64,000 bases of DNA from Candidatus Niyogibacteria bacterium (lineage in GTDB: Bacteria; Patescibacteriota; Minisyncoccia; HO2-45-28). Shown here piece by piece: positions 29,388 through 39,785 of this stretch. Location: positions 281,762 through 345,761 of the forward strand of contig CP066691.1 in the NCBI GenBank assembly GCA_016432485.1, given 5' to 3'. A program made the position numbers and the translations under genes. Each line of letters starts with the position of its first letter. Within the stretch, counting starts at the first letter, position 1. The notes beneath the pieces were generated by a model that was given only the letters and a program-made list of their open reading frames with translations, was not told the origin of the DNA and searched no databases.

Positions 29388-30089
29388 TTATTTTATTCTT
29401 ATTTTTTTCTCGTTTCGTCCGGCGTAATAATCGCACTTTTTGCACTCCAAATCGTCTCCCGGGTAAGGTTTTTCAAGAAAATCAACCATTTCTTTGAGTT
29501 TCTTTTCAAAATTTTTGGCGTCAATTTTCACTTCGTCCACATGACTCGCGAATTTCACTTCTGTTGACGGGTCGTTTTTGTCTTTGACGAAATAGTGCAG
29601 CAAAAAGGCGCGGTCTGACGGCTTATATCCGTTTTTCAAAAACATATAGCCATAGGCGGCAAGTTGGTCGCGGTAATATTTCTGCTTGTCTTCAGCCGGC
29701 GCGTTGCCGGATGATTTGTAATCGGCCGGAATAAAGCGGCCGTCCGATTCCACAAAAACATCGTCAATTTTTCCGACAAGTTCGTAACCCGAATTTTCAT
29801 TTACCACTTTAAGCGCGCTGGAATTGGTCCGCCACTCGTTGAGAAGTTCCAGATCGTCAAAAGTCCTTATGCCCATTTTCTCAAGCTCCTTGGATTCCGG
29901 CGGAAATTTTTTGTCGGCGCGGTATTTGTCGTATCTGGTCTTTAAAATGCTGTCCATCGCCGTATTTAAAGCCAACGGCAGCATCGGCGGTTTTCTATGA
30001 TGATTCTCAAGCCAAAAACAGGCCTTGCATTCCGTATAAGAATAAAGCCCGCTCGGGCTCAACTTCCATAATCCATTTTTTGTTTTCAT
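29388..30089 (-). CDS. PD-(D/E)xK nuclease, Cas4/RecB-like, with four Cys
   Basis: IDD...ADYK nuclease motif. N-terminal CKAC and C-terminal CKKC pairs, consistent with Cas4-type Fe-S ligation. Confidence 0.55.
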   Translation of the reverse strand: MKTKNGLWKLSPSGLYSYTECKACFWLENHHRKPPMLPLALNTAMDSILKTRYDKYRADKKFPPESKELEKMGIRTFDDLELLNEWRTNSSALKVVNENSGYELVGKIDDVFVESDGRFIPADYKSSGNAPAEDKQKYYRDQLAAYGYMFLKNGYKPSDRAFLLHYFVKDKNDPSTEVKFASHVDEVKIDAKNFEKKLKEMVDFLEKPYPGDDLECKKCDYYAGRNEKKIRIK

Positions 30090-30556: not shown

Positions 30557-31128
30557 GAATAAAATAGTTCGTTTTTTGTGGTATACTTAAATGTGTATGC
30601 CAAAAGAAAAACGAACATACGCCGACCGCCGAGAGTATTTAAAAATGGCAGTGACCAAAAGACGACGAAGATTAAAAACACTGCTTGTAGAATATAAAGG
30701 CGGGAAATGCACGGTCTGCAGTTATAATAAAACCCCGTGGGCAATGGATCTTCATCATGTTGATGAATCCAAGAAATCATTTGATATGTCCTCACGCGGA
30801 CTTACCCGCTCATGGGAACGTCTTAAAAAAGAGGCAGATAAGTGTGTGTTGCTTTGTGCAAATTGTCACAGAGAAATACACGCCGGCGTAACGCAGCTTC
30901 CTAAAGTAATTTAGGTTGAAAAATCTCGGGATAACGGTGAAGCCCTAAATCTTTTGCATTAGATTGGGTAATACCGTGGGAACCTTTGCTTGTTCGGGGT
31001 TTACTCCGAGCGAAGTCGAGGAGCGCCGTAGAGACTAGATACCGAGATCCCGCCATTCATTTGAAATATTATTTAATGGAGGGGGGGAAAGATATAGTCC
31101 AACCCTAAAAGTAATTTTAGGACCGTTG
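30557..31128 (+). mobile_element. group I intron (about 572 nt) with an embedded HNH homing-endonuclease ORF
   Basis: Lies between tRNA halves. Exon 1 ends in T and the intron ends in G (accgttG). P7-like pairing GAGACTAGA / GATATAGTCC, with the latter close to the Tetrahymena AGATATAGTCGG segment. P9-like hairpin CCTAAAAgtaaTTTTAGG just before the 3' splice site. Confidence 0.6.
30591..30914 (+). CDS. HNH homing endonuclease (intron-encoded)
   Basis: CTVCS...DLHHVD...CANCHREIH HNH/zinc-finger motif; 107 aa, basic. Confidence 0.75.
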   Translation: MCMPKEKRTYADRREYLKMAVTKRRRRLKTLLVEYKGGKCTVCSYNKTPWAMDLHHVDESKKSFDMSSRGLTRSWERLKKEADKCVLLCANCHREIHAGVTQLPKVI

Positions 31129-31292: not shown

Positions 31293-31331
31293 GCCCCCGC
31301 CTCCGGCATATGCCGGAGGCGGGGGGTTTTA
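31293..31331 (+). terminator. intrinsic terminator downstream of the tRNA
   Basis: CCCCGCCTCCGGCATATGCCGGAGGCGGGGGG followed by TTTT. Confidence 0.7.
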
Positions 31332-31464
31332 GGTTGAAATCAGGCCAAAAATGTGGGAAAGTAAGGGGGATATGAAGAATCTCATGGAAAAATTGAAAAA
31401 GGTGCTTATCAAAGAGATGTTTACACATTCGGTGTTCCGCTTGATGATTTAATCAAGTAGAAAT

Positions 31465-34398
31465 ATGTCGGTTTTTCTTAAAAAATATTTGGCTGAAAAA
31501 GTAGCTCTTCAAAAAATGGCCGGCTCTTTGAACCGCCTATCTTCTGTCTTGGCAAAATCAACGATTGACCTCAACCCGTATCAAATTCATGCGGCTCTTT
31601 ACGCATTTAACAGTCCGCTTTCTCGTGGCGCAATTTTGGCCGATGAAGTCGGCTTGGGTAAGACGATTGAAGCCGGCATTATCATATCCCAACTTTGGGC
31701 CGAAGGGAAGAGAAAGATATTAATTCTTGCCCCGGCCTCGTTAAGAAAACAGTGGCAAGATGAGTTGCTTTCAAAATTTGGAATTGAATCAGAAGTTTGG
31801 GACGGCCCCTCTTTTAGGGCGCAAACAGACATGGGAGAAAAGACACCCCTAACTTACAGTGGCGTTTTTATAATTTCTTACCATTTTGCTTACAGCCACC
31901 TTGAATTGATAAGGAAGCAAGGTTGGGCTGTTGTTGTAATAGATGAAGCCCATCGTTTTAGGCGTGTGTTCAAGGGAAGAGATGCCTCAAAAATGGCATA
32001 CGACATTCGGGAAATAATAAAAGATAAACCAAAGGTTTTGCTGACGGCAACACCCCTGCAAAACAGCCTTGAGGAATTATACGGGATAGCAAGTTTTATA
32101 GACGACAAGCTTCTCGGATCATCCTATAGTTTCAAAACGAAGTTCATACAGCCGATAAAGGACCAGTCGGGGTTAGCTAAATTGAGATTGGAGGAATTGA
32201 GGGCATTGATACGCGGGGAAGAAGGCGACGACCCGTCGTCAATCTCCGGAGTAATTACACGGACTTTGAGAAAACAAGTTTTGGAGTATGTGCAATTTAC
32301 CGACAGGACATCAATGACTTTTGACTTTACTCCCACCGAGGAAGAAGTTGAATTGTACGAGAAAGTTTCCGCATACCTCCAGCGTCCTAATGTGGCGGCC
32401 ATTACCGCGACGCAGAGAAATTTGATGATTCTCGTTTACAGAAAATTATTGGCCAGTTCGTCGTTCGCCATAGCCGACACCCTGAAGAAGTTAAGTGAGA
32501 ATCTAAAAAACGAATTGAAGTTGCGAAATAAAGAAGCAGTGGCCGAGGAGTTGAATCCGGAGTCAACGGCAGATGAGGGCCTTTTGGAAGAATTTGAAGA
32601 ATCAGAATTGGAGGGAGTAGAACAAGGTCAGAAGAAAGAAAAGCAACGCGTTGACGATACTTTTAGCGATGACGACATAAAAAAGGAAATAGAGGAGTTG
32701 GAAGGATATTATTCATTGGCAGTCAAAATTAAAGAAAACACAAAGGGTAAAGCGTTGATTAACGCCTTGTCGCAACTTTTCAAACAGGCCAGAGAAAAGA
32801 AGTGGCCTGAAAAAGCTGTGGTGTTCACAGAGTCAACGCGCACTCAGGACTATCTTTTAAAACTTCTCAAAGAAGCCGGAATTTCTTTTACGGAATTCAA
32901 CGGGTCAAATAACTCGCCCGAAGCACGAGAGGCATTCAATCGTTGGAAAAAGGAGTTTCCAGAAGCGGCATCTGTTGGTTCAGCATCTGCCAACACGCGC
33001 CAAGCTCTTATTCATGACTTCAGAACAAATACACAAGTCTTGCTTACCACAGAAGCGGGGGCGGAAGGATTAAACCTCCAGTTTGCAAATATTGTCATCA
33101 ATTATGATTTGCCGTGGAATCCTCAAAGAGTGGAACAGAGAATCGGCCGTTGCCACCGCTACGGCCAAAAGCACCAAGTGGTAGTTGCGAATTTTCTTAA
33201 TACAAAAAATTACGCCGATAAGCGAGTACTGGAATTGTTGAGCGAGAAACTAAATTTATTTAACGGACTTTTTGGAAGTTCCGATGAGATTCTTGGCGCT
33301 TTGGAATCCGGTCTTGATTTTGAAAAGAAGATACTTGAAATTTATCAAAACAGCAGAAGCCCTGAAGAATACGACAAAGCGTTTACAGAACTACAGGAAA
33401 GCTTGAAAGATGTTATCTCAAAAACAACCTTGCAATATAGAAACTTGTTATTGGAAAGCGCGGATCAAGCTGTTGCCGCATTATTCAAAAAAACGGAAGC
33501 GGAAACTAAAAAAGCGATTTCAGATTTTGACAGGGATTTGCTTTTTCTCTGCAAGCTCACGCTGGAAGAAAAGATAAAACCAACCGAGGATGAGGCGATT
33601 TTTGTGATAGATGGTTATAAATTTCCGATTGCTTTTCGAGAGCTTCGCGATGATGAAGAAGGTAAAATTTCCCGCGCGCACAAAGACCATCCAGTCATCA
33701 GTAAAATTATTGAAGATAATTTGAAACTGCAAACTAAGCCGATACCTTCTTTGATTTTTGAGCTTTCAAAACACGGCGGTAAAATATCCCAGTTGAGCGA
33801 CGCTAAAGTAAAAGAAGGATTTATATTTCTTTGGAAGTTAAAGATAGCCGGAGTCGAGACGGAAGAAATTTTAGTGCCGCTCGTTTTTCTCGAAAAAACA
33901 GAAGGCGAATTCAGCGCATTGGATGTGGCAATTGCCAATGAATTCATTGATGTGGAAAGTGTTGATTCTGAAAAAACACTTGAGAGTTCGCCTATTAAAA
34001 AAGAGTTTTTGCTTCAAACTTGGGAAAAATGGAAAAAGCCAGTTGTAGAAAGGTATCAGAAAAGAAATGAGCGTCTTTTTGACAGGGAGACGAACAGGAT
34101 AAACCGATATTACGACGACTACGCGCTTCGTGTTGAAGATAGGATGAAAAAGTCGGAAAATGAACAAAAGGATGTAAATCGTAGGAGAGATAATTCCTCC
34201 GACTTGGAAGAAAGGCGGAAGTTGCTCAAGCGAATTCAAGACATCAATATTGCTTTGGACAAGCTAAGAATCCAGCAGTTGAAGTTGAGACAAGAAGGTG
34301 CGAAATTGCGAGAAAAAGAACTGGACAATCTTTGGAAAACTCTGGAGCCGAAAATTTCCGAAGAAATGATTGCGATAACGCATTTCACCATTCAATAA
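31465..34398 (+). CDS. SNF2-family DNA-dependent ATPase/translocase with a roughly 350-aa C-terminal domain of unknown function
   Basis: Motif I DEVGLGKT, Ia PASLRKQWQDE, II DEAH, III TATPLQNSLEELY, helicase-C motifs (TEAGAEGLNLQ, QRIGRCHRYGQ). Acidic insert between lobes; coiled-coil C-terminus. Confidence 0.85.
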   Translation: MSVFLKKYLAEKVALQKMAGSLNRLSSVLAKSTIDLNPYQIHAALYAFNSPLSRGAILADEVGLGKTIEAGIIISQLWAEGKRKILILAPASLRKQWQDELLSKFGIESEVWDGPSFRAQTDMGEKTPLTYSGVFIISYHFAYSHLELIRKQGWAVVVIDEAHRFRRVFKGRDASKMAYDIREIIKDKPKVLLTATPLQNSLEELYGIASFIDDKLLGSSYSFKTKFIQPIKDQSGLAKLRLEELRALIRGEEGDDPSSISGVITRTLRKQVLEYVQFTDRTSMTFDFTPTEEEVELYEKVSAYLQRPNVAAITATQRNLMILVYRKLLASSSFAIADTLKKLSENLKNELKLRNKEAVAEELNPESTADEGLLEEFEESELEGVEQGQKKEKQRVDDTFSDDDIKKEIEELEGYYSLAVKIKENTKGKALINALSQLFKQAREKKWPEKAVVFTESTRTQDYLLKLLKEAGISFTEFNGSNNSPEAREAFNRWKKEFPEAASVGSASANTRQALIHDFRTNTQVLLTTEAGAEGLNLQFANIVINYDLPWNPQRVEQRIGRCHRYGQKHQVVVANFLNTKNYADKRVLELLSEKLNLFNGLFGSSDEILGALESGLDFEKKILEIYQNSRSPEEYDKAFTELQESLKDVISKTTLQYRNLLLESADQAVAALFKKTEAETKKAISDFDRDLLFLCKLTLEEKIKPTEDEAIFVIDGYKFPIAFRELRDDEEGKISRAHKDHPVISKIIEDNLKLQTKPIPSLIFELSKHGGKISQLSDAKVKEGFIFLWKLKIAGVETEEILVPLVFLEKTEGEFSALDVAIANEFIDVESVDSEKTLESSPIKKEFLLQTWEKWKKPVVERYQKRNERLFDRETNRINRYYDDYALRVEDRMKKSENEQKDVNRRRDNSSDLEERRKLLKRIQDINIALDKLRIQQLKLRQEGAKLREKELDNLWKTLEPKISEEMIAITHFTIQ

Positions 34399-34399
34399 T

Positions 34400-35374
34400 A
34401 TGTCAACGGAAATTAAACAAAAAAAACAGGACTTGGGAATTTTTTACACCGACCAGAGAATCGTGAGTTTTATATATGATATTCTTTCTGTCTGGAAAGC
34501 AAAAGAGGACGAGGATTTAAAGCGTTGGGAGAGTCGAAAACCTCATGCTCACTATCCGTCAGTTATTGATCCGGCTTGCGGCGAGGGAATCTTCTTAAAG
34601 AAAGCAGTGGAGTCCGGTTTTACCGGATACAATCCTACACATAAAGTGCCATATATTTTCGGTATTGATATAGATGAATCGGTTGTTGATAAATGGGAAT
34701 CTGTTGAGCTTCTAAATTTTTTCCACGAAGACAGAAGGGCAATGAAAAATCACTTTTATGGCCAAAACGGATTGCTTAATCTGCCGAATAGAAAATTGCC
34801 TTACAAAAAAATGGAAGACGGACTTGTACAATTTGATGCGGTTGTTGGTAATCCGCCGTATGGAGGCATCGGTCTTAAAGAAGAAGAAATGAGGGGCAAA
34901 TTGGCGGCATCCCTTTTGGAGTACGAGATATGGAAATACGCTTTTGATATACAAATAAGCAAGCAGGGAAATATGTTTGGATCCATGGCCTCTCAAAAGG
35001 ACATTGTAAATAGATTGAGAAATATGCCCATCGAAATTTTATTTCTAGAGAGATTTATACAACTTGCAAAGCCGGGCGGTTGGATAGCTATCATTATTCC
35101 AGACGGCATTTTAACCAATTCAAATTCTCACTATGTACGCGAATTTGTTAGCGAGAAAGCAAGAGTGGAAGCAATTGTTTCTTTGCCGCGAGACGCTTTC
35201 AAAAATGTTGGCACAACAGCCAAAACCAGCATTTTATTTTTACAAAAATATAAAGACCAAGGGAAAGAGCGAGATTTAAACTATCCGGTTTTTCTCGCTT
35301 CAGTCGAATCTCTTGAAGAAAAATATTTTAAAATTATAAAAGATGCTTACCAAAAGCATTATACAAAAATATGA
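34400..35374 (+). CDS. gamma-class N6-adenine DNA methyltransferase (HsdM/Eco57I-like catalytic module without TRD)
   Basis: Motif I DPACGEGIFL and motif IV VVGNPPYGG; the start is 2 nt after the SNF2 stop. Confidence 0.8.
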   Translation: MSTEIKQKKQDLGIFYTDQRIVSFIYDILSVWKAKEDEDLKRWESRKPHAHYPSVIDPACGEGIFLKKAVESGFTGYNPTHKVPYIFGIDIDESVVDKWESVELLNFFHEDRRAMKNHFYGQNGLLNLPNRKLPYKKMEDGLVQFDAVVGNPPYGGIGLKEEEMRGKLAASLLEYEIWKYAFDIQISKQGNMFGSMASQKDIVNRLRNMPIEILFLERFIQLAKPGGWIAIIIPDGILTNSNSHYVREFVSEKARVEAIVSLPRDAFKNVGTTAKTSILFLQKYKDQGKERDLNYPVFLASVESLEEKYFKIIKDAYQKHYTKI

Positions 35375-36203: not shown

Positions 36204-37997
36204 ATGCCAGAACAAAGGTCGGAAAATTCTTATATCGTAAACGACATCTTACCGTTTCTGGCAAGCAATTTTGGCTACCCGATTCATGACGCGGAGCGAG
36301 TAAAAATAAACGATGTTCCGATTTTTCGGCCAAGCGGCGGCAGAAGTGGGTCCACAATTGATATTGTCTACTATCATAACGGGGAGCCAGTTCTTCTCAT
36401 TGAAGCAAAAACTAAACATAAAACTCATGAGTCCGCATTGATAGAAGCAAAGAATTATCTAAAAAACTTTCCCATAGACAAACCGGAGTTTGCTCCGTCT
36501 GGCTTGCCCCCAAAAATTTTGGCAACAACAGTCGGTAAAAACATTAAATTTTACAAATGGAGCATAGATTATTCAAAACCAATTCCGGATTTTATAACCG
36601 AAGAAATTGAGGTTTTATCATTTGAGAAGTTGCTTTCCTACTACGGATTAATTAAAGAATATAAGGCGCGCATTTTAGAGCCCAAAAACTTTGCCACGGA
36701 TTTTTTTGACGAACTAATTTCTATTTTCAAATTTCATAAAAAAGAGAAAAAAATAACAAAGGATGTTGTCAAAGAAGTTGTTTATCAAATTCACAATTAT
36801 TTGCTGAATCCAAAAAAATACACCGGCGATTATCCTTACACCGAATTGGACTTACAAGGACAAAAAGCCGTTCGCGATCTGTTTAAGCGATTTGATTTTG
36901 TCGCTTCGCTTGGCCCGGAAATAGCCAAAGAATTTCGCAAGTCGATTTTGAGATCTTTTCAAGGCGAAGAATTCAATCAGTACCTTACCGAAAAATGCGT
37001 TATAGATTTTGTTTTCGGTCTGATTGGCAAATTGAACAAACACACGAAAGTTTTGGATTTCGAGTGTGGTAGTGGAGGATTTTTGGCGACGGCAGTCAAT
37101 CAGAACAATTTGGATTTGGAAAATGTGATGGGGATTGATATTGAGGACTTGCCTTATATCATCGCCAAAACTTACTTTGCTCTGTACTTCGGAAAAACCG
37201 GTGAGGGGTTGAATCTTGTCCCAATAAAGAAAGATAACGGCTTGTTTTATCACGGCAAGAATTGGGATTTAGTTGTGGGCAATCCCGCCGGAAGCAGTAA
37301 ATACGAACATGGCGATGAAGATAAAATTTTTGAGAATCTAAATAGTGATTTAAATAACGACGACAAAAAAGATAAAATTTCGGAGTACAATTTGTCAATT
37401 CAGCAAGCGATTCAATCCGCTCGCGTTGGCGGCAAGATTTGTTTGATACTGCCTGAAGGAGTGTTTTCAAATTCTCAAGACGAGTTTTTAAGAAAATATA
37501 TCGCCAAATATTGCAATATATTGGCAATCGTGAGCTTGCCACCGGGGTCGTTCAGAAGAGGAACAACAGTAAGCCAGTTAAGGAGAGGCGCACAATCTGC
37601 TTCAATGAAAATGTCTATTGTGTACGCGGAAAAAACCAGAGAGGTCAGGAAAAAAGAAGGATTGGAAGTTGATTTGAGGCATTTGGACTACCCGATATTT
37701 TTAGCGCACATTGATAAGGTTGATTCCGGATCAGGCGAAATCAGTGAATGGCTGGAGGAAAGATTAAACGTTGTGTTGGAGCAATGGAAAGAGTGGCAGA
37801 ATAAAGCTGAATTGAATGATATTGAAAAAATAACCACAAAGCTTGATAAAGAAGAAAAGATAAAAGAAAATCAAAAAACTTTGTTTAGCAAGGTCGAGCT
37901 CGACAAGACAAACATAGAAAAAAGTAAAAAGATAAAACCAAAAGAGGGTAAGTCAGAAACAAAGATAAGCAAAAACTTGGAAGATTTATTAAGTTAA
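36204..37997 (+). CDS. HsdR_N-type PD-(D/E)xK nuclease fused to a paralogous N6-MTase-like domain with a degenerate motif IV (NPAG) and a Lys-rich coiled-coil tail
   Basis: N-terminus GSTIDIVYYHNGEPVLLIEAKTK (D...ExK). MTase-like domain has motif I LDFECGSGGFLATAV but VVGNPAGSS in place of NPPY. Collinear similarity to the 34400-35374 protein (MGIDIE vs FGIDID, GGKICLILPEGV vs GGWIAIIIPDGI, AIVSLPP vs AIVSLPR). Confidence 0.7.
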   Translation: MPEQRSENSYIVNDILPFLASNFGYPIHDAERVKINDVPIFRPSGGRSGSTIDIVYYHNGEPVLLIEAKTKHKTHESALIEAKNYLKNFPIDKPEFAPSGLPPKILATTVGKNIKFYKWSIDYSKPIPDFITEEIEVLSFEKLLSYYGLIKEYKARILEPKNFATDFFDELISIFKFHKKEKKITKDVVKEVVYQIHNYLLNPKKYTGDYPYTELDLQGQKAVRDLFKRFDFVASLGPEIAKEFRKSILRSFQGEEFNQYLTEKCVIDFVFGLIGKLNKHTKVLDFECGSGGFLATAVNQNNLDLENVMGIDIEDLPYIIAKTYFALYFGKTGEGLNLVPIKKDNGLFYHGKNWDLVVGNPAGSSKYEHGDEDKIFENLNSDLNNDDKKDKISEYNLSIQQAIQSARVGGKICLILPEGVFSNSQDEFLRKYIAKYCNILAIVSLPPGSFRRGTTVSQLRRGAQSASMKMSIVYAEKTREVRKKEGLEVDLRHLDYPIFLAHIDKVDSGSGEISEWLEERLNVVLEQWKEWQNKAELNDIEKITTKLDKEEKIKENQKTLFSKVELDKTNIEKSKKIKPKEGKSETKISKNLEDLLS

Positions 37998-38001
37998 AAA
38001 T

Positions 38002-38283
38002 ATGAAAAAAGATAATAAAACAATAGGTATTACAATTCGTTTTTTCACCAACGATCTGCCGGGTCGTGTAGGAACCAAAAAGGAACACACACCATTTTGG
38101 ACTTGTGGCAACGTTCATCTCGAGGCGAACAAAACAAAAGGAATAAAACCTCAAGATGAAATGTTCAATTACTTTGAAGATATTCCCCGCGCAATTAAGG
38201 TGGTTTTAAGCAAAAGTAAATTGGTAGCCGTTGAAGATGTTGCGTATAGCATGAGAGCAGAGAAAAGAAGAAAAACAAGTTGA
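38002..38283 (+). CDS. small hypothetical protein, last gene of the operon
   Basis: 93 aa; begins 4 nt after the upstream stop. Confidence 0.4.
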   Translation: MKKDNKTIGITIRFFTNDLPGRVGTKKEHTPFWTCGNVHLEANKTKGIKPQDEMFNYFEDIPRAIKVVLSKSKLVAVEDVAYSMRAEKRRKTS

Positions 38284-38568: not shown

Positions 38569-38597
38569 AAACGGACGGGATAGGTCCGTTTTTTTGT
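38569..38597 (+). terminator. intrinsic terminator
   Basis: AACGGAC-gggatag-GTCCGTT followed by TTTTTTG. Confidence 0.65.
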
Positions 38598-39101: not shown

Positions 39102-39785
39102 GTGAAAAAAGATCAAAAAATATATATAAAAGAGAACGATGTTAACTTTCGGAAGCCATCCGGTGAACCAGATGGCGTGGAAAAAATGAAAGCGGGACAG
39201 AATCTCGTTTTTGTGGATGGGCCGTGGTTTAGGGCAACAAAAGATGGAAAGATTGGTTGGGTCTATGCTGACTATATATCTGAAACGAATCCGAACCCCG
39301 CACAGCAGCCACAGCAATTGATTTCTTTTGTGGAGGGATGGCCAAACTTATACAACAGCCCTGTTACTGTTGCCGTTCGCGAAATTATTAATAATGAGTT
39401 TGGGCTTGAAGCGGAGAAAATCCCGTTAAATTGTACCGAATACGTCCAGTATTGCATCAAGACAAAACTGGGCATTGTTATCGAGTGGCCATCTGACCGC
39501 CCGCGTCATGGCGGAAAATGGGCAGATATTTTTAGACGAAATAATTTGTACAAGGTTATAAATGAACCAGTTTCAAATTGTGCTGCTTGTTTTACTGATG
39601 TCCGCAAGAAAGACGGAACTTTAACAAAGGAAGGTCACGTTGCATTTGTTGAAGAAATATTTCCTGATGGCTCAATAAAAATTTCAGAGGCAAATTGGCC
39701 CAACAGCGGTATTTATAGTGAGCGTATTTTAAGCAAAGCGGATTGGCAAAATAAATATAGGTGCCGTTTTATTGATTTTTTATGA
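39102..39785 (+). CDS. SH3b plus CHAP-domain peptidoglycan hydrolase (no signal peptide)
   Basis: SH3b-like GQNLVFVDGPWFRATKDGKIGWVYADYI. CHAP Cys (CTEYVQYC) and His (GHVAFVEEI). Confidence 0.65.
   Translation: MKKDQKIYIKENDVNFRKPSGEPDGVEKMKAGQNLVFVDGPWFRATKDGKIGWVYADYISETNPNPAQQPQQLISFVEGWPNLYNSPVTVAVREIINNEFGLEAEKIPLNCTEYVQYCIKTKLGIVIEWPSDRPRHGGKWADIFRRNNLYKVINEPVSNCAACFTDVRKKDGTLTKEGHVAFVEEIFPDGSIKISEANWPNSGIYSERILSKADWQNKYRCRFIDFL

Follow-up and report, generated by a model that had tools for sequence, protein, structure and literature searches.

The restriction-modification (RM) enzyme BsaXI, of Type IIB, is an (RM)2S assembly in which the target recognition domain (TRD) of the specificity subunit, S, sits in a cradle formed by the eighth strand of the methyltransferase (MTase) sheet and the base of a knob domain (PMC11997821). 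PacII M1M2S is a non-canonical Type I core that combines two different M subunits with one S (PMC9613975, PMC5100572). Here we describe a gene encoding a 597-residue protein (36204-37997, + strand) in a 64,000-nucleotide stretch of contig CP066691.1 of a Candidatus Niyogibacteria bacterium (assembly GCA_016432485.1, positions 281,762 to 345,761 of the forward strand; this whole stretch is called the window below). The product is named NM', for nuclease-M', the M' part being an MTase-like domain. We propose, at about even confidence, that NM' is the restriction subunit of a four-gene RM operon, a Type IIB/Type I hybrid in which labour would be split between two proteins of MTase fold, NM' and the product, M, of a nearby gene (34400-35374). 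A simpler description of NM' would be a Type IIB/IIG-type RM subunit whose methylation has been handed to a separate M. A preliminary description of this locus had treated NM' as a one-off oddity. It belongs instead to a conserved family, and its closest solved relative is the RM subunit of BsaXI.

NM' consists of a PD-(D/E)xK nuclease, a helical connector and a gamma-class N6-adenine MTase fold, extended by a linker and a short C-terminal peptide. The features are as follows, in window coordinates and residues of NM', the short motifs being read directly from the sequence:

36204-36608, + strand: N-terminal PD-(D/E)xK nuclease domain, aa 1-135 (Pfam HSDR_N, 6.8e-06)
36609-36953, + strand: helical connector from the nuclease to the MTase-like domain, aa ~136-250, ~115 aa
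36954-37808, + strand: MTase-like domain M', aa ~251-535 (Pfam N6_Mtase at aa 252-491, E 4.1e-14; Eco57I also matched)
36978-36995, + strand: M' motif X, QYLTE
37053-37097, + strand: M' motif I, LDFECGSGGFLATAV, aa 284-298, containing DFECGSGGFL
37131-37148, + strand: M' GIDIED
37236-37250, + strand: M' NGL
37278-37304, + strand: M' non-canonical motif IV, GNPAGSSKY (GNPAGSS is aa 359-365, nt 37278-37298)
37449-37475, + strand: M' LPEGVFSNS, with a motif VIII-like Phe
37689-37706, + strand: M' strand YPIFLA
37746-37805, + strand: conserved Trp-rich helix of M'
37809-37958, + strand: disordered Lys-rich linker, aa ~536-585 (pLDDT <50 across 542-597)
37959-37997, + strand: conserved C-terminal peptide TKISKNLEDLLS and stop codon, aa 586-597, with a predicted short helix at 590-596

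The HSDR_N match covers aa 46-88 and scores 26.5 bits against a cut-off of 25.1. The nuclease triad comprises D53 (within nt 36357-36374) and E67-A-K69 (within nt 36396-36413). In the AlphaFold2 (AF2) model, with an overall pLDDT of 72.8, the connector forms helices at 140-146, 160-178, 186-201 and 217-252. NPAG follows the strand 354-359 and thus occupies the canonical beta-4 position, in the post-beta-4 catalytic loop; pLDDT falls below 50 at 363-371. NM' has no TRD, its C-terminus being modelled as a helix and a disordered, Lys-rich tail of ~60 aa.

In N6-adenine MTases the Tyr of the canonical motif IV, NPPY, stacks on the flipped base. The 6-amino group of the target base donates hydrogen bonds to the Asn and to the first Pro (PMC3874165). 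The fold of M' retains the S-adenosylmethionine (SAM)-binding motifs X, I, II and III and the Asn-Pro of motif IV, whereas the aromatic residue is replaced (NPAG) in every member examined. Relatives of NM' form 302 clusters at E <= 1e-5. When 20 homologues with identities as low as 50% are aligned, N360, P361, A362, G363, Y367, the DFECGSGGFL segment and the nuclease residues D53, E67 and K69 are invariant, and LPEG(V/F)FSNS, with its motif VIII-like Phe, is nearly so. The fraction of majority residues is highest in the MTase-like domain (0.73), slightly lower in the nuclease (0.69) and lowest in the linker (0.32). A search of 1.84 billion representatives uncovered a sister family, here called B (the NM' family proper being A), with proteins of ~500-590 aa that are ~28% identical to NM', share its layout of nuclease, connector and MTase-like domain, and carry NPP[G/A]xxxY as motif IV. 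A census of 342 fetched relatives counted NPAG in 155, NPSG in 6, NPPG in 50 and NPPA in 15. Among library matches with a recognisable motif IV, MTases from outside the two families read NPPF, NPPY or NPPW, with two exceptions (NPPM and NPPA). Family A has an invariant aromatic residue seven positions after the Asn (N+7), and in family B this feature is nearly invariant. The fixation of a non-canonical motif IV in the best conserved domain of the protein points to strong constraint on a domain without the canonical aromatic: the NPAG state is conserved and is not the product of decay. All NM' members come from metagenome-assembled genomes or metagenomes, and from uncultured lineages only (Patescibacteria, Nitrospirota, Omnitrophota and others). 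The phage collection contained no homologue, nor did the plasmid collection, where the single match was an unrelated MTase. A pattern-based metagenome scan for family B proved too generic; its matches, most of them ordinary MTases of 23-30% identity, were set aside.

The preliminary description held that the C-terminal two thirds of NM' align collinearly with M, of which M' would be a catalytically degenerate paralog. BLASTP does reveal homology between the two MTase regions (26% identity over 279 columns, E 3e-15), with residues 52-306 of M collinear with residues 280-507 of NM', but the domain concerned makes up about half of the protein (~aa 250-535). The reading of the motifs stands. Motif I is retained at aa 284-298, the GNPPYGG of M (aa 150-156, nt 34847-34867) aligns column-for-column with the GNPAGSS of M' (VVGNPPYGG over VVGNPAGSS), and the HsdR_N-type D...ExK motif assigned to the N-terminus is borne out by the HSDR_N match and by the invariance of its residues. 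The term paralog, however, applies only loosely. Against the M' family profile the window M scores 55.8 bits, while the 150 best-scoring library cluster representatives, mostly NPPF/NPPY MTases from outside the NM' family, score at least 66 bits. Judged by these scores, we take M and M' to belong to the same MTase subgroup, M being neither a recent tandem duplicate of M' nor its nearest relative. As for degeneracy, the motif IV aromatic is indeed lost; a loss of catalysis is not thereby established, as the Asn, the first Pro and the N+7 Tyr are invariant.

Searched against the Protein Data Bank (PDB), the NM' family profile finds RM.BsaXI as its best match (E 1.5e-10), with VVSNPPFS aligned to VVGNPAGS. 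Foldseek, run with the AF2 model of NM', also places BsaXI RM first (E 2.8e-16), ahead of HsdM proteins, BpuSI (3s1s), DrdV and PacII M1M2S (7vs4), and the alignments to BsaXI RM and BpuSI span the nuclease as well as the MTase domain. The best PDB sequence match of the window M is again RM.BsaXI (3.6e-14). The multi-helical connector of BsaXI RM lies in a place equivalent to that of the NM' connector (PMC11997821). Finally, a strand YPxF(L/M)A, which in M' takes the form YP(I/V)F(L/M)A, is common to M, M' and BsaXI RM and aligns to the post-knob strand of the latter. Since it follows the knob insertion, we take it to be the eighth strand; equating it with the strand that cradles the TRD leads us to think that both M and M' bind S in the manner of BsaXI.

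Five closely packed + strand open reading frames (ORFs), the fourth of which encodes NM', lie in tandem from a terminator-like hairpin (31294-31325) to a terminator-like site (38573-38591):

31294-31325, + strand: strong terminator-like hairpin with a 14-bp stem of 13 G-C pairs, which ends the upstream unit (consensus scan only)
31420-31448, 5' of the operon: promoter-like site (consensus scan only)
31465-34398, + strand: SNF2-family helicase/translocase, 977 aa
34400-35374, + strand: M, gamma-class N6-adenine DNA methyltransferase, 324 aa
35371-36198, + strand: S, specificity subunit with a single TRD, 275 aa
36204-37997, + strand: NM', the gene under study, 597 aa
38002-38283, + strand: small ORF, 93 aa

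The successive intergenic distances of 1, -4, 5 and 4 nt, with M starting 1 nt past the helicase stop and the S start overlapping the M stop (ATGA), suggest translational coupling. GC content falls to 0.36-0.39 in the block around the operon (~33-41 kb), against 0.43-0.49 elsewhere, which suggests horizontal acquisition. Rfam and repeat scans detected no RNA element and no shufflon-type repeat inside the operon.

M looks like an active N6-adenine MTase, with motifs X (GIFYTD), I (IDPACGEGIF) and IV (GNPPYGG) and matches to Pfam N6_Mtase (1.7e-19) and Eco57I (4.6e-13). Genomic context was examined for 34 genome loci and for three further contigs that were looked up. The partner M has NPPY or NPPF as motif IV in every system but one, a Nitrospirae operon whose M (L001 8183-9220; the same operon recurs as L002 and L014) reads NFPYGG instead of NPPYGG. 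The order SNF2-M-S-NM' is shared by 17 distinct operons, whose hosts belong to Patescibacteria, Nitrospirota, Omnitrophota, Planctomycetota, Elusimicrobia, Firestonebacteria, Actinomycetota and other groups. Eight family-A loci encode M and S as a single fused protein of ~520-620 aa, and seven family-A loci have a three-gene form, M-S-NM', that does without the helicase. The family B contexts are likewise helicase-less and consist of an M-S fusion (N6_Mtase plus Methylase_S) and NM', or of M, S and NM', or, in one case, of a DprA-M-S fusion and NM'. What is conserved, then, is the combination of an active-looking M, a specificity module with one TRD, and a nuclease joined to a non-canonical MTase fold. 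The helicase was added later, in part of family A. The M-S fusions imply that M and NM' share one assembly, at least in the fused variants, where the M-S protein offers the nuclease protein its only access to a TRD; this speaks for a single complex of M and M', as had been suggested in the preliminary description.

The same description had called S a single-TRD subunit, correctly so: PADLOC Specificity_I profiles are matched over one half of their length (1.3e-12), and there is a weak match to S.BsaXI. Conserved N-terminal (~aa 10-52) and helical C-terminal (~aa 216-275) regions flank a hypervariable TRD. Across 19 aligned S proteins, the TRD has a median identity of 28% and the flanks one of 55%. 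The order of TRD types does not follow the NM' tree: they are shuffled, and have been swapped between distantly related operons; L004 and L032, for instance, have TRDs that are 68% identical in frameworks that are 49% identical. Between the window and its closest relative, L004, identity is 88% for SNF2, 83% for NM', 70% for M and 50% for S, and S is the most divergent of the four proteins between related operons. Such a pattern is typical of a specificity determinant that is shared and diversifying, and S behaves as one.

Missing from the earlier picture of the system was the SNF2 helicase (31465-34398), which appears to be translationally coupled to M and co-varies with the C-terminal peptide of NM'. 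Its Walker A (GLGKT, 31651-31665), DEAH box (31942-31953) and motif VI (QRIGRCHRYGQ, 33136-33168) are intact. It matches Pfam SNF2-rel_dom (6.9e-34) and Helicase_C (8.6e-24) and is of the DrmD/BrxHII/RapA-like kind (PADLOC DrmD 2.4e-184, BrxHII 2.5e-66), scoring 614 bits with the NCBIfam model DISARM_DrmD_b, below the cut-off of 950. Since the helicase has no recognisable nuclease motif, NM' holds the only recognisable nuclease domain of the operon. The C-terminal ~290 aa of the helicase form an alpha/beta domain with a long helical hairpin (AF2 pLDDT 81.9). Searched against the PDB, the AF2 model of this domain gave nothing significant (the best match, at E 0.08, was driven by coiled coils), and a word-indexed search with it returned only fragments of the same family.

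The conserved C-terminal peptide of NM' (TKISxxLEDLF), here called the tail, has the consensus [T/S]K[I/V][S/N]xxL[E/K][D/E][L/I][F/L] and is predicted to be helical. It is present in all 17 operons with a full helicase and absent from all seven helicase-less ones (Fisher p 2.9e-6, uncorrected for phylogeny). In L028 (5396-9674) only a 293-aa C-terminal remnant of the SNF2 gene is left, and the NM' tail is gone; this operon appears to be losing its motor. In a rough neighbour-joining (NJ) tree of NM', rooted on family B, the helicase-less and tail-less L032 and L036 lie at the base, and the tree implies a single gain of helicase and tail followed by two to three concordant losses. The joint losses are nested: one in a clade of L003, L012, L018 and L031 (which includes L016, whose upstream region is unavailable and whose helicase status could not be assessed), another in L024, with L028 likewise tail-less. 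The helicase-bearing L001 shares its TRD type, at 77-84% identity, with L003, L012, L016 and L018, and the helicase is absent from L003, L012 and L018. As the tail is present exactly where the helicase is, it probably recruits the motor; co-occurrence thus argues that the tail of NM' probably tethers, or docks, the SNF2 protein.

These data suggest the following scheme. M together with S would methylate the target adenine and so protect host DNA. Through the MTase-like domain, NM' would attach to the S that M uses, or to the M-S protein, much as BsaXI RM cradles S, and by sharing S would read exactly the sequence that M modifies. The pocket of M' would bind SAM and probe the flipped adenine through Asn-Pro without efficient methyl transfer: M' keeps the Asn-Pro, the SAM motifs and the motif VIII-like Phe and lacks the Tyr, and the most economical reading of this combination is that SAM and adenine are bound while methyl transfer is poor or absent. 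Probing would license the tethered nuclease on unmethylated sites only. The Lys-rich linker and the TKISxxLEDLF helix would recruit the SNF2 translocase. Recruitment would convert the three-gene form, which would cut at fixed positions, into the four-gene form of the window, a Type I-like enzyme driven by ATP. Occurrence of the core M, S and NM' without helicase in families A and B speaks for the division of labour proposed here. More tentatively, and short of thinking it probable, we suggest in particular that M' is a pseudo-enzyme sensor that holds SAM, flips the adenine and reads its N6 status through Asn-Pro without methylating it, with the motor recruited by the C-terminal peptide. If M' could not methylate, restriction and modification would no longer compete within one active site.

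Several observations weigh against this proposal. The loss of methyl transfer hinges on one residue, with Asn-Pro intact, and the invariant N+7 Tyr sits in the low-confidence loop (pLDDT <50, 363-371), from which it might re-enter the pocket. Binding of M' to S, stoichiometry and docking of the tail on the helicase are deduced from homology and co-occurrence, the association of tail and helicase being uncorrected for phylogeny and the tree a rough one. An orphan NM' (L009) has the tail, yet no helicase, M or S lies within 8 kb. The helicase C-terminal domain, for want of a recognisable structural relative, offers no clue to the mode of docking.

The most plausible of the alternatives, although we consider it unlikely, is that M' is still an active adenine MTase with an atypical motif IV, N-P-x-G-x-x-x-Y, whose downstream Tyr stacks on the base, and that the locus is a Type IIB/IIG-like RM and S pair with a companion M, similar to Eco57I or BpuSI. 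The invariance of the SAM motifs and of N360 and P361, which in active enzymes hydrogen-bond the target amino group (PMC3874165), would be readily explained in this way, as would the N+7 aromatic (invariant in family A, nearly so in B) and the nearly invariant motif VIII-like Phe, and some Type IIC enzymes do cooperate with separate MTases (PMC4081073). However, relatives outside the family have an aromatic residue at position 4 of motif IV in all but two cases (NPPM, NPPA), and every complete operon keeps a canonical NPPY M, which would be redundant if M' methylated a symmetric site defined by S. No characterised N6-adenine MTase is known to us to have Gly or Ala at position 4 of motif IV, and the Y108A/G mutants of M.TaqI reportedly suffer a drop in kcat of 2-3 orders of magnitude; both points also count against activity of M'. 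A slightly less probable alternative makes M' a purely structural docking module in an M-M'-S2 tetramer, where methylation status is read by the active M alone and nothing is sensed by M'. The preliminary description had offered docking and SAM sensing together. That idea is supported in so far as the SAM motifs and the strand aligned to the post-knob strand of BsaXI RM are kept, the motif IV aromatic is lacking and this state is conserved. Docking alone would agree with the M-S fusion variants, in which the nuclease protein has to join an M-containing protein to gain access to the TRD, and it has a precedent in the two-M Type I core of PacII M1M2S (PMC9613975, PMC5100572; structural match 7vs4). 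A pure scaffold, on the other hand, would need neither invariant SAM-binding motifs nor an invariant Asn-Pro in the catalytic loop, and the MTase-like domain is better conserved than the nuclease.

That the operon represents, as a fragment or a variant, some larger defence system combining SNF2 and N6-MTase proteins, such as class 1 DISARM, type 3 BREX, Hma/DUF499 or MADS, seems improbable. Strong matches of the helicase to the DrmD and BrxHII models, and weak ones of M, S and NM' to the MADS2 and MADS5 models, might be read in that sense, but the DrmD_b score falls short of its cut-off (614 < 950), the MADS2 matches reach 72-91 bits against a cut-off of 720, and in L001 and L003 the operon stands as a four-gene unit amid unrelated housekeeping genes; signature partner genes were not found in the window or in the gene-listed loci. 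Hardly credible is the idea that NM' is a decaying Type IIG/IIB RM gene whose MTase motif has drifted. The non-canonical motif IV is all that recommends it, and the conservation data already contradict it: the substitution is invariant in >150 sequences from many phyla and has its counterpart in a sister family at ~28% identity, the ORFs are intact and the domain is highly conserved. The division of labour between M and NM' remains our preferred reading.

The surroundings of the operon, and some of its variants, call for a few further remarks. The 93-aa ORF at 38002-38283, which begins 4 nt beyond the NM' stop, has counterparts at the same position in the close relatives L004 (9802-10083, E 8e-57) and L007 (9785-10081, E 2e-51) only, and no match in Pfam, PADLOC or NCBIfam; it is possibly an accessory gene of the closest relatives. 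Close to the 5' end of the operon, at 30815-31121 (+ strand), Rfam identifies a group I catalytic intron (RF00028; 57.3 bits with a gathering threshold of 50, E 1.3e-12). The intron overlaps the end of a 107-aa ORF (30591-30914) that could encode a homing endonuclease, the C-terminus of its product (CANCHREIH) being weakly HNH-like; ARAGORN found no tRNA near the intron. Also upstream, a Cas4-like PD-(D/E)XK nuclease (PF12705, E 4e-15) is encoded at 29388-30089 (- strand), and the ORFs examined around the operon include no CRISPR genes. A CHAP-domain protein is encoded downstream, at 39102-39785 (+ strand). In four operons elsewhere a DUF3800 gene (PF12686, E 1e-16) is inserted 5' of NM', after S or the M-S fusion, at the following positions:

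L021 5223-5963: DUF3800 insertion
L025 7116-7859: DUF3800 insertion
L027 7066-7806: DUF3800 insertion
L011 4371-5117: DUF3800 insertion (split)

The DUF3800 gene may be an accessory defence component. The DprA-M-S protein of family B (DNA_processg_A, N6_Mtase and Methylase_S domains; 985 aa) is encoded at L119 928-3885 in a WOR-3 bacterium, a fusion that hints at methylation of incoming transforming DNA. In L009 (3755-9794) the orphan NM' adjoins a 970-aa fusion of multiple methyltransferases with DPPY and C5-type GPPCQ motifs.

If the division of labour holds, the RM subunit of a Type IIB/IIG enzyme can split into an active methylase and a nuclease-bearing pseudo-methylase served by one shared S, and the split would remove the competition between cutting and methylating that such enzymes must manage. 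It would also suggest that a short peptide can couple an SNF2 motor of the DISARM/BREX-3/Hma kind to a restriction complex. Were M' a sensor, the operons would represent a modular RM class able to change between Type IIB-like and Type I-like ATP-driven forms by way of one gene and a 12-residue tail. With labour divided as proposed, M and M' would have their parallel in pairs of an active and a pseudo-methyltransferase such as METTL3-METTL14, here in bacteria. In that pair an active MTase is joined by a degenerate relative that lacks the motif IV aromatic and catalytic residues (EPPL in METTL14) and serves in substrate binding. METTL3-METTL14 is a eukaryotic RNA m6A writer without a nuclease, and METTL14 has lost SAM binding, whereas M' keeps its SAM motifs.

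The architecture is undescribed in the full-text literature searched, where a paper on Haloferax HVO_A0006 concerns a Type IIG nuclease fragment and one on 'solitary REases' concerns frameshifted MTases, neither being relevant here; nor is the four-gene system called by the defence-system models applied (PADLOC, NCBIfam). With the Type IIB enzymes BsaXI and BcgI, it shares an N-terminal PD-(D/E)xK nuclease, a helical connector, a gamma-class N6-adenine MTase fold and a separate S, and NM' has the RM layout of nuclease plus MTase fold. But BsaXI RM has an active NPPF, methylates on its own and has no separate M, whereas here NPAG is accompanied by an NPPY M, and NM' lacks the catalytic NPP(Y/F/W) motif of such an RM subunit. 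A two-gene system of RM and two-TRD S, with neither M nor motor, is likewise not what is found: S has one TRD where that of BsaXI has two, the knob and paddle insertions of BsaXI are absent, and an SNF2 helicase is attached where BsaXI has no ATP-dependent motor. Type IIB enzymes also cut at fixed distances on either side of their recognition site. Type I systems (EcoKI R2M2S1; half-S/AhdI-type M2S2 cores) resemble the operon in their separate M and S genes, their HsdR_N-type nuclease motif and their ATP-dependent double-stranded DNA translocase, and S is HsdS-like in the conserved flanks around a variable, recombining TRD, albeit a single one. HsdR, however, unites the nuclease and an HsdR/ResIII-type motor in one polypeptide. 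Here the nuclease is fused to an MTase-like domain instead, and the motor, of the SNF2 family, is encoded separately and can be dispensed with in some lineages. Type I enzymes translocate DNA at the expense of ATP and cut it far from the site; the helicase motifs are intact in the window, and three-gene relatives have no motor. Both M subunits of PacII are active (m6A and m4C) and neither has a nuclease, unlike NM'. Type IIG/IIC enzymes with a companion MTase (Eco57I, BpuSI) also place a nuclease-MTase fusion beside a stand-alone MTase, but those fusions have a TRD of their own, an active NPPY/F and no helicase, while NM' has NPAG and no TRD. Type ISP enzymes carry nuclease, helicase, MTase and TRD in one polypeptide, as against four separate genes.

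An SNF2 protein of the RapA-like subgroup stands beside an N6-adenine MTase in class 1 DISARM (DrmD/DrmMI), type 3 BREX (BrxHII/PglXI) and Hma/DUF499 systems as well, the last two being defined by a BrxC/DUF499 AAA+ ATPase (with PglZ for BREX; PMC12839542). In the present operon, by contrast, the MTase is small and has a Type I-style S, and the PD-(D/E)xK nuclease is supplied by the M' fusion. DrmA, DrmB, DrmC, PglZ, the BrxC/DUF499 ATPase and a kinase were not found near the operon in the window or in the gene-listed loci (L001, L003, L118-L120). Membership in class 1 DISARM was rejected because the DrmD_b score is too low and no DrmA, DrmB (DUF1998) or DrmC (PLD) gene flanks the operon in the window, L001 or L003; BREX-3 and Hma were rejected for the absence of their signature genes from operon and flanks. 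MADS, an eight-gene mad1-8 operon that includes a kinase (bioRxiv 10.1101/2023.03.30.534895), was rejected as the MAD2/MAD5 matches are partial, domain-level ones of 34-91 bits (cut-offs 400 and 720). The four-gene system lacks defining features of every known class considered (Type IIB, I, ISP and IIG, DISARM, BREX-3, Hma and MADS). Its working would come closest to that of a Type IIB enzyme in which methylation has passed to M and which, in the window, has acquired an SNF2 protein as a Type I-like motor.

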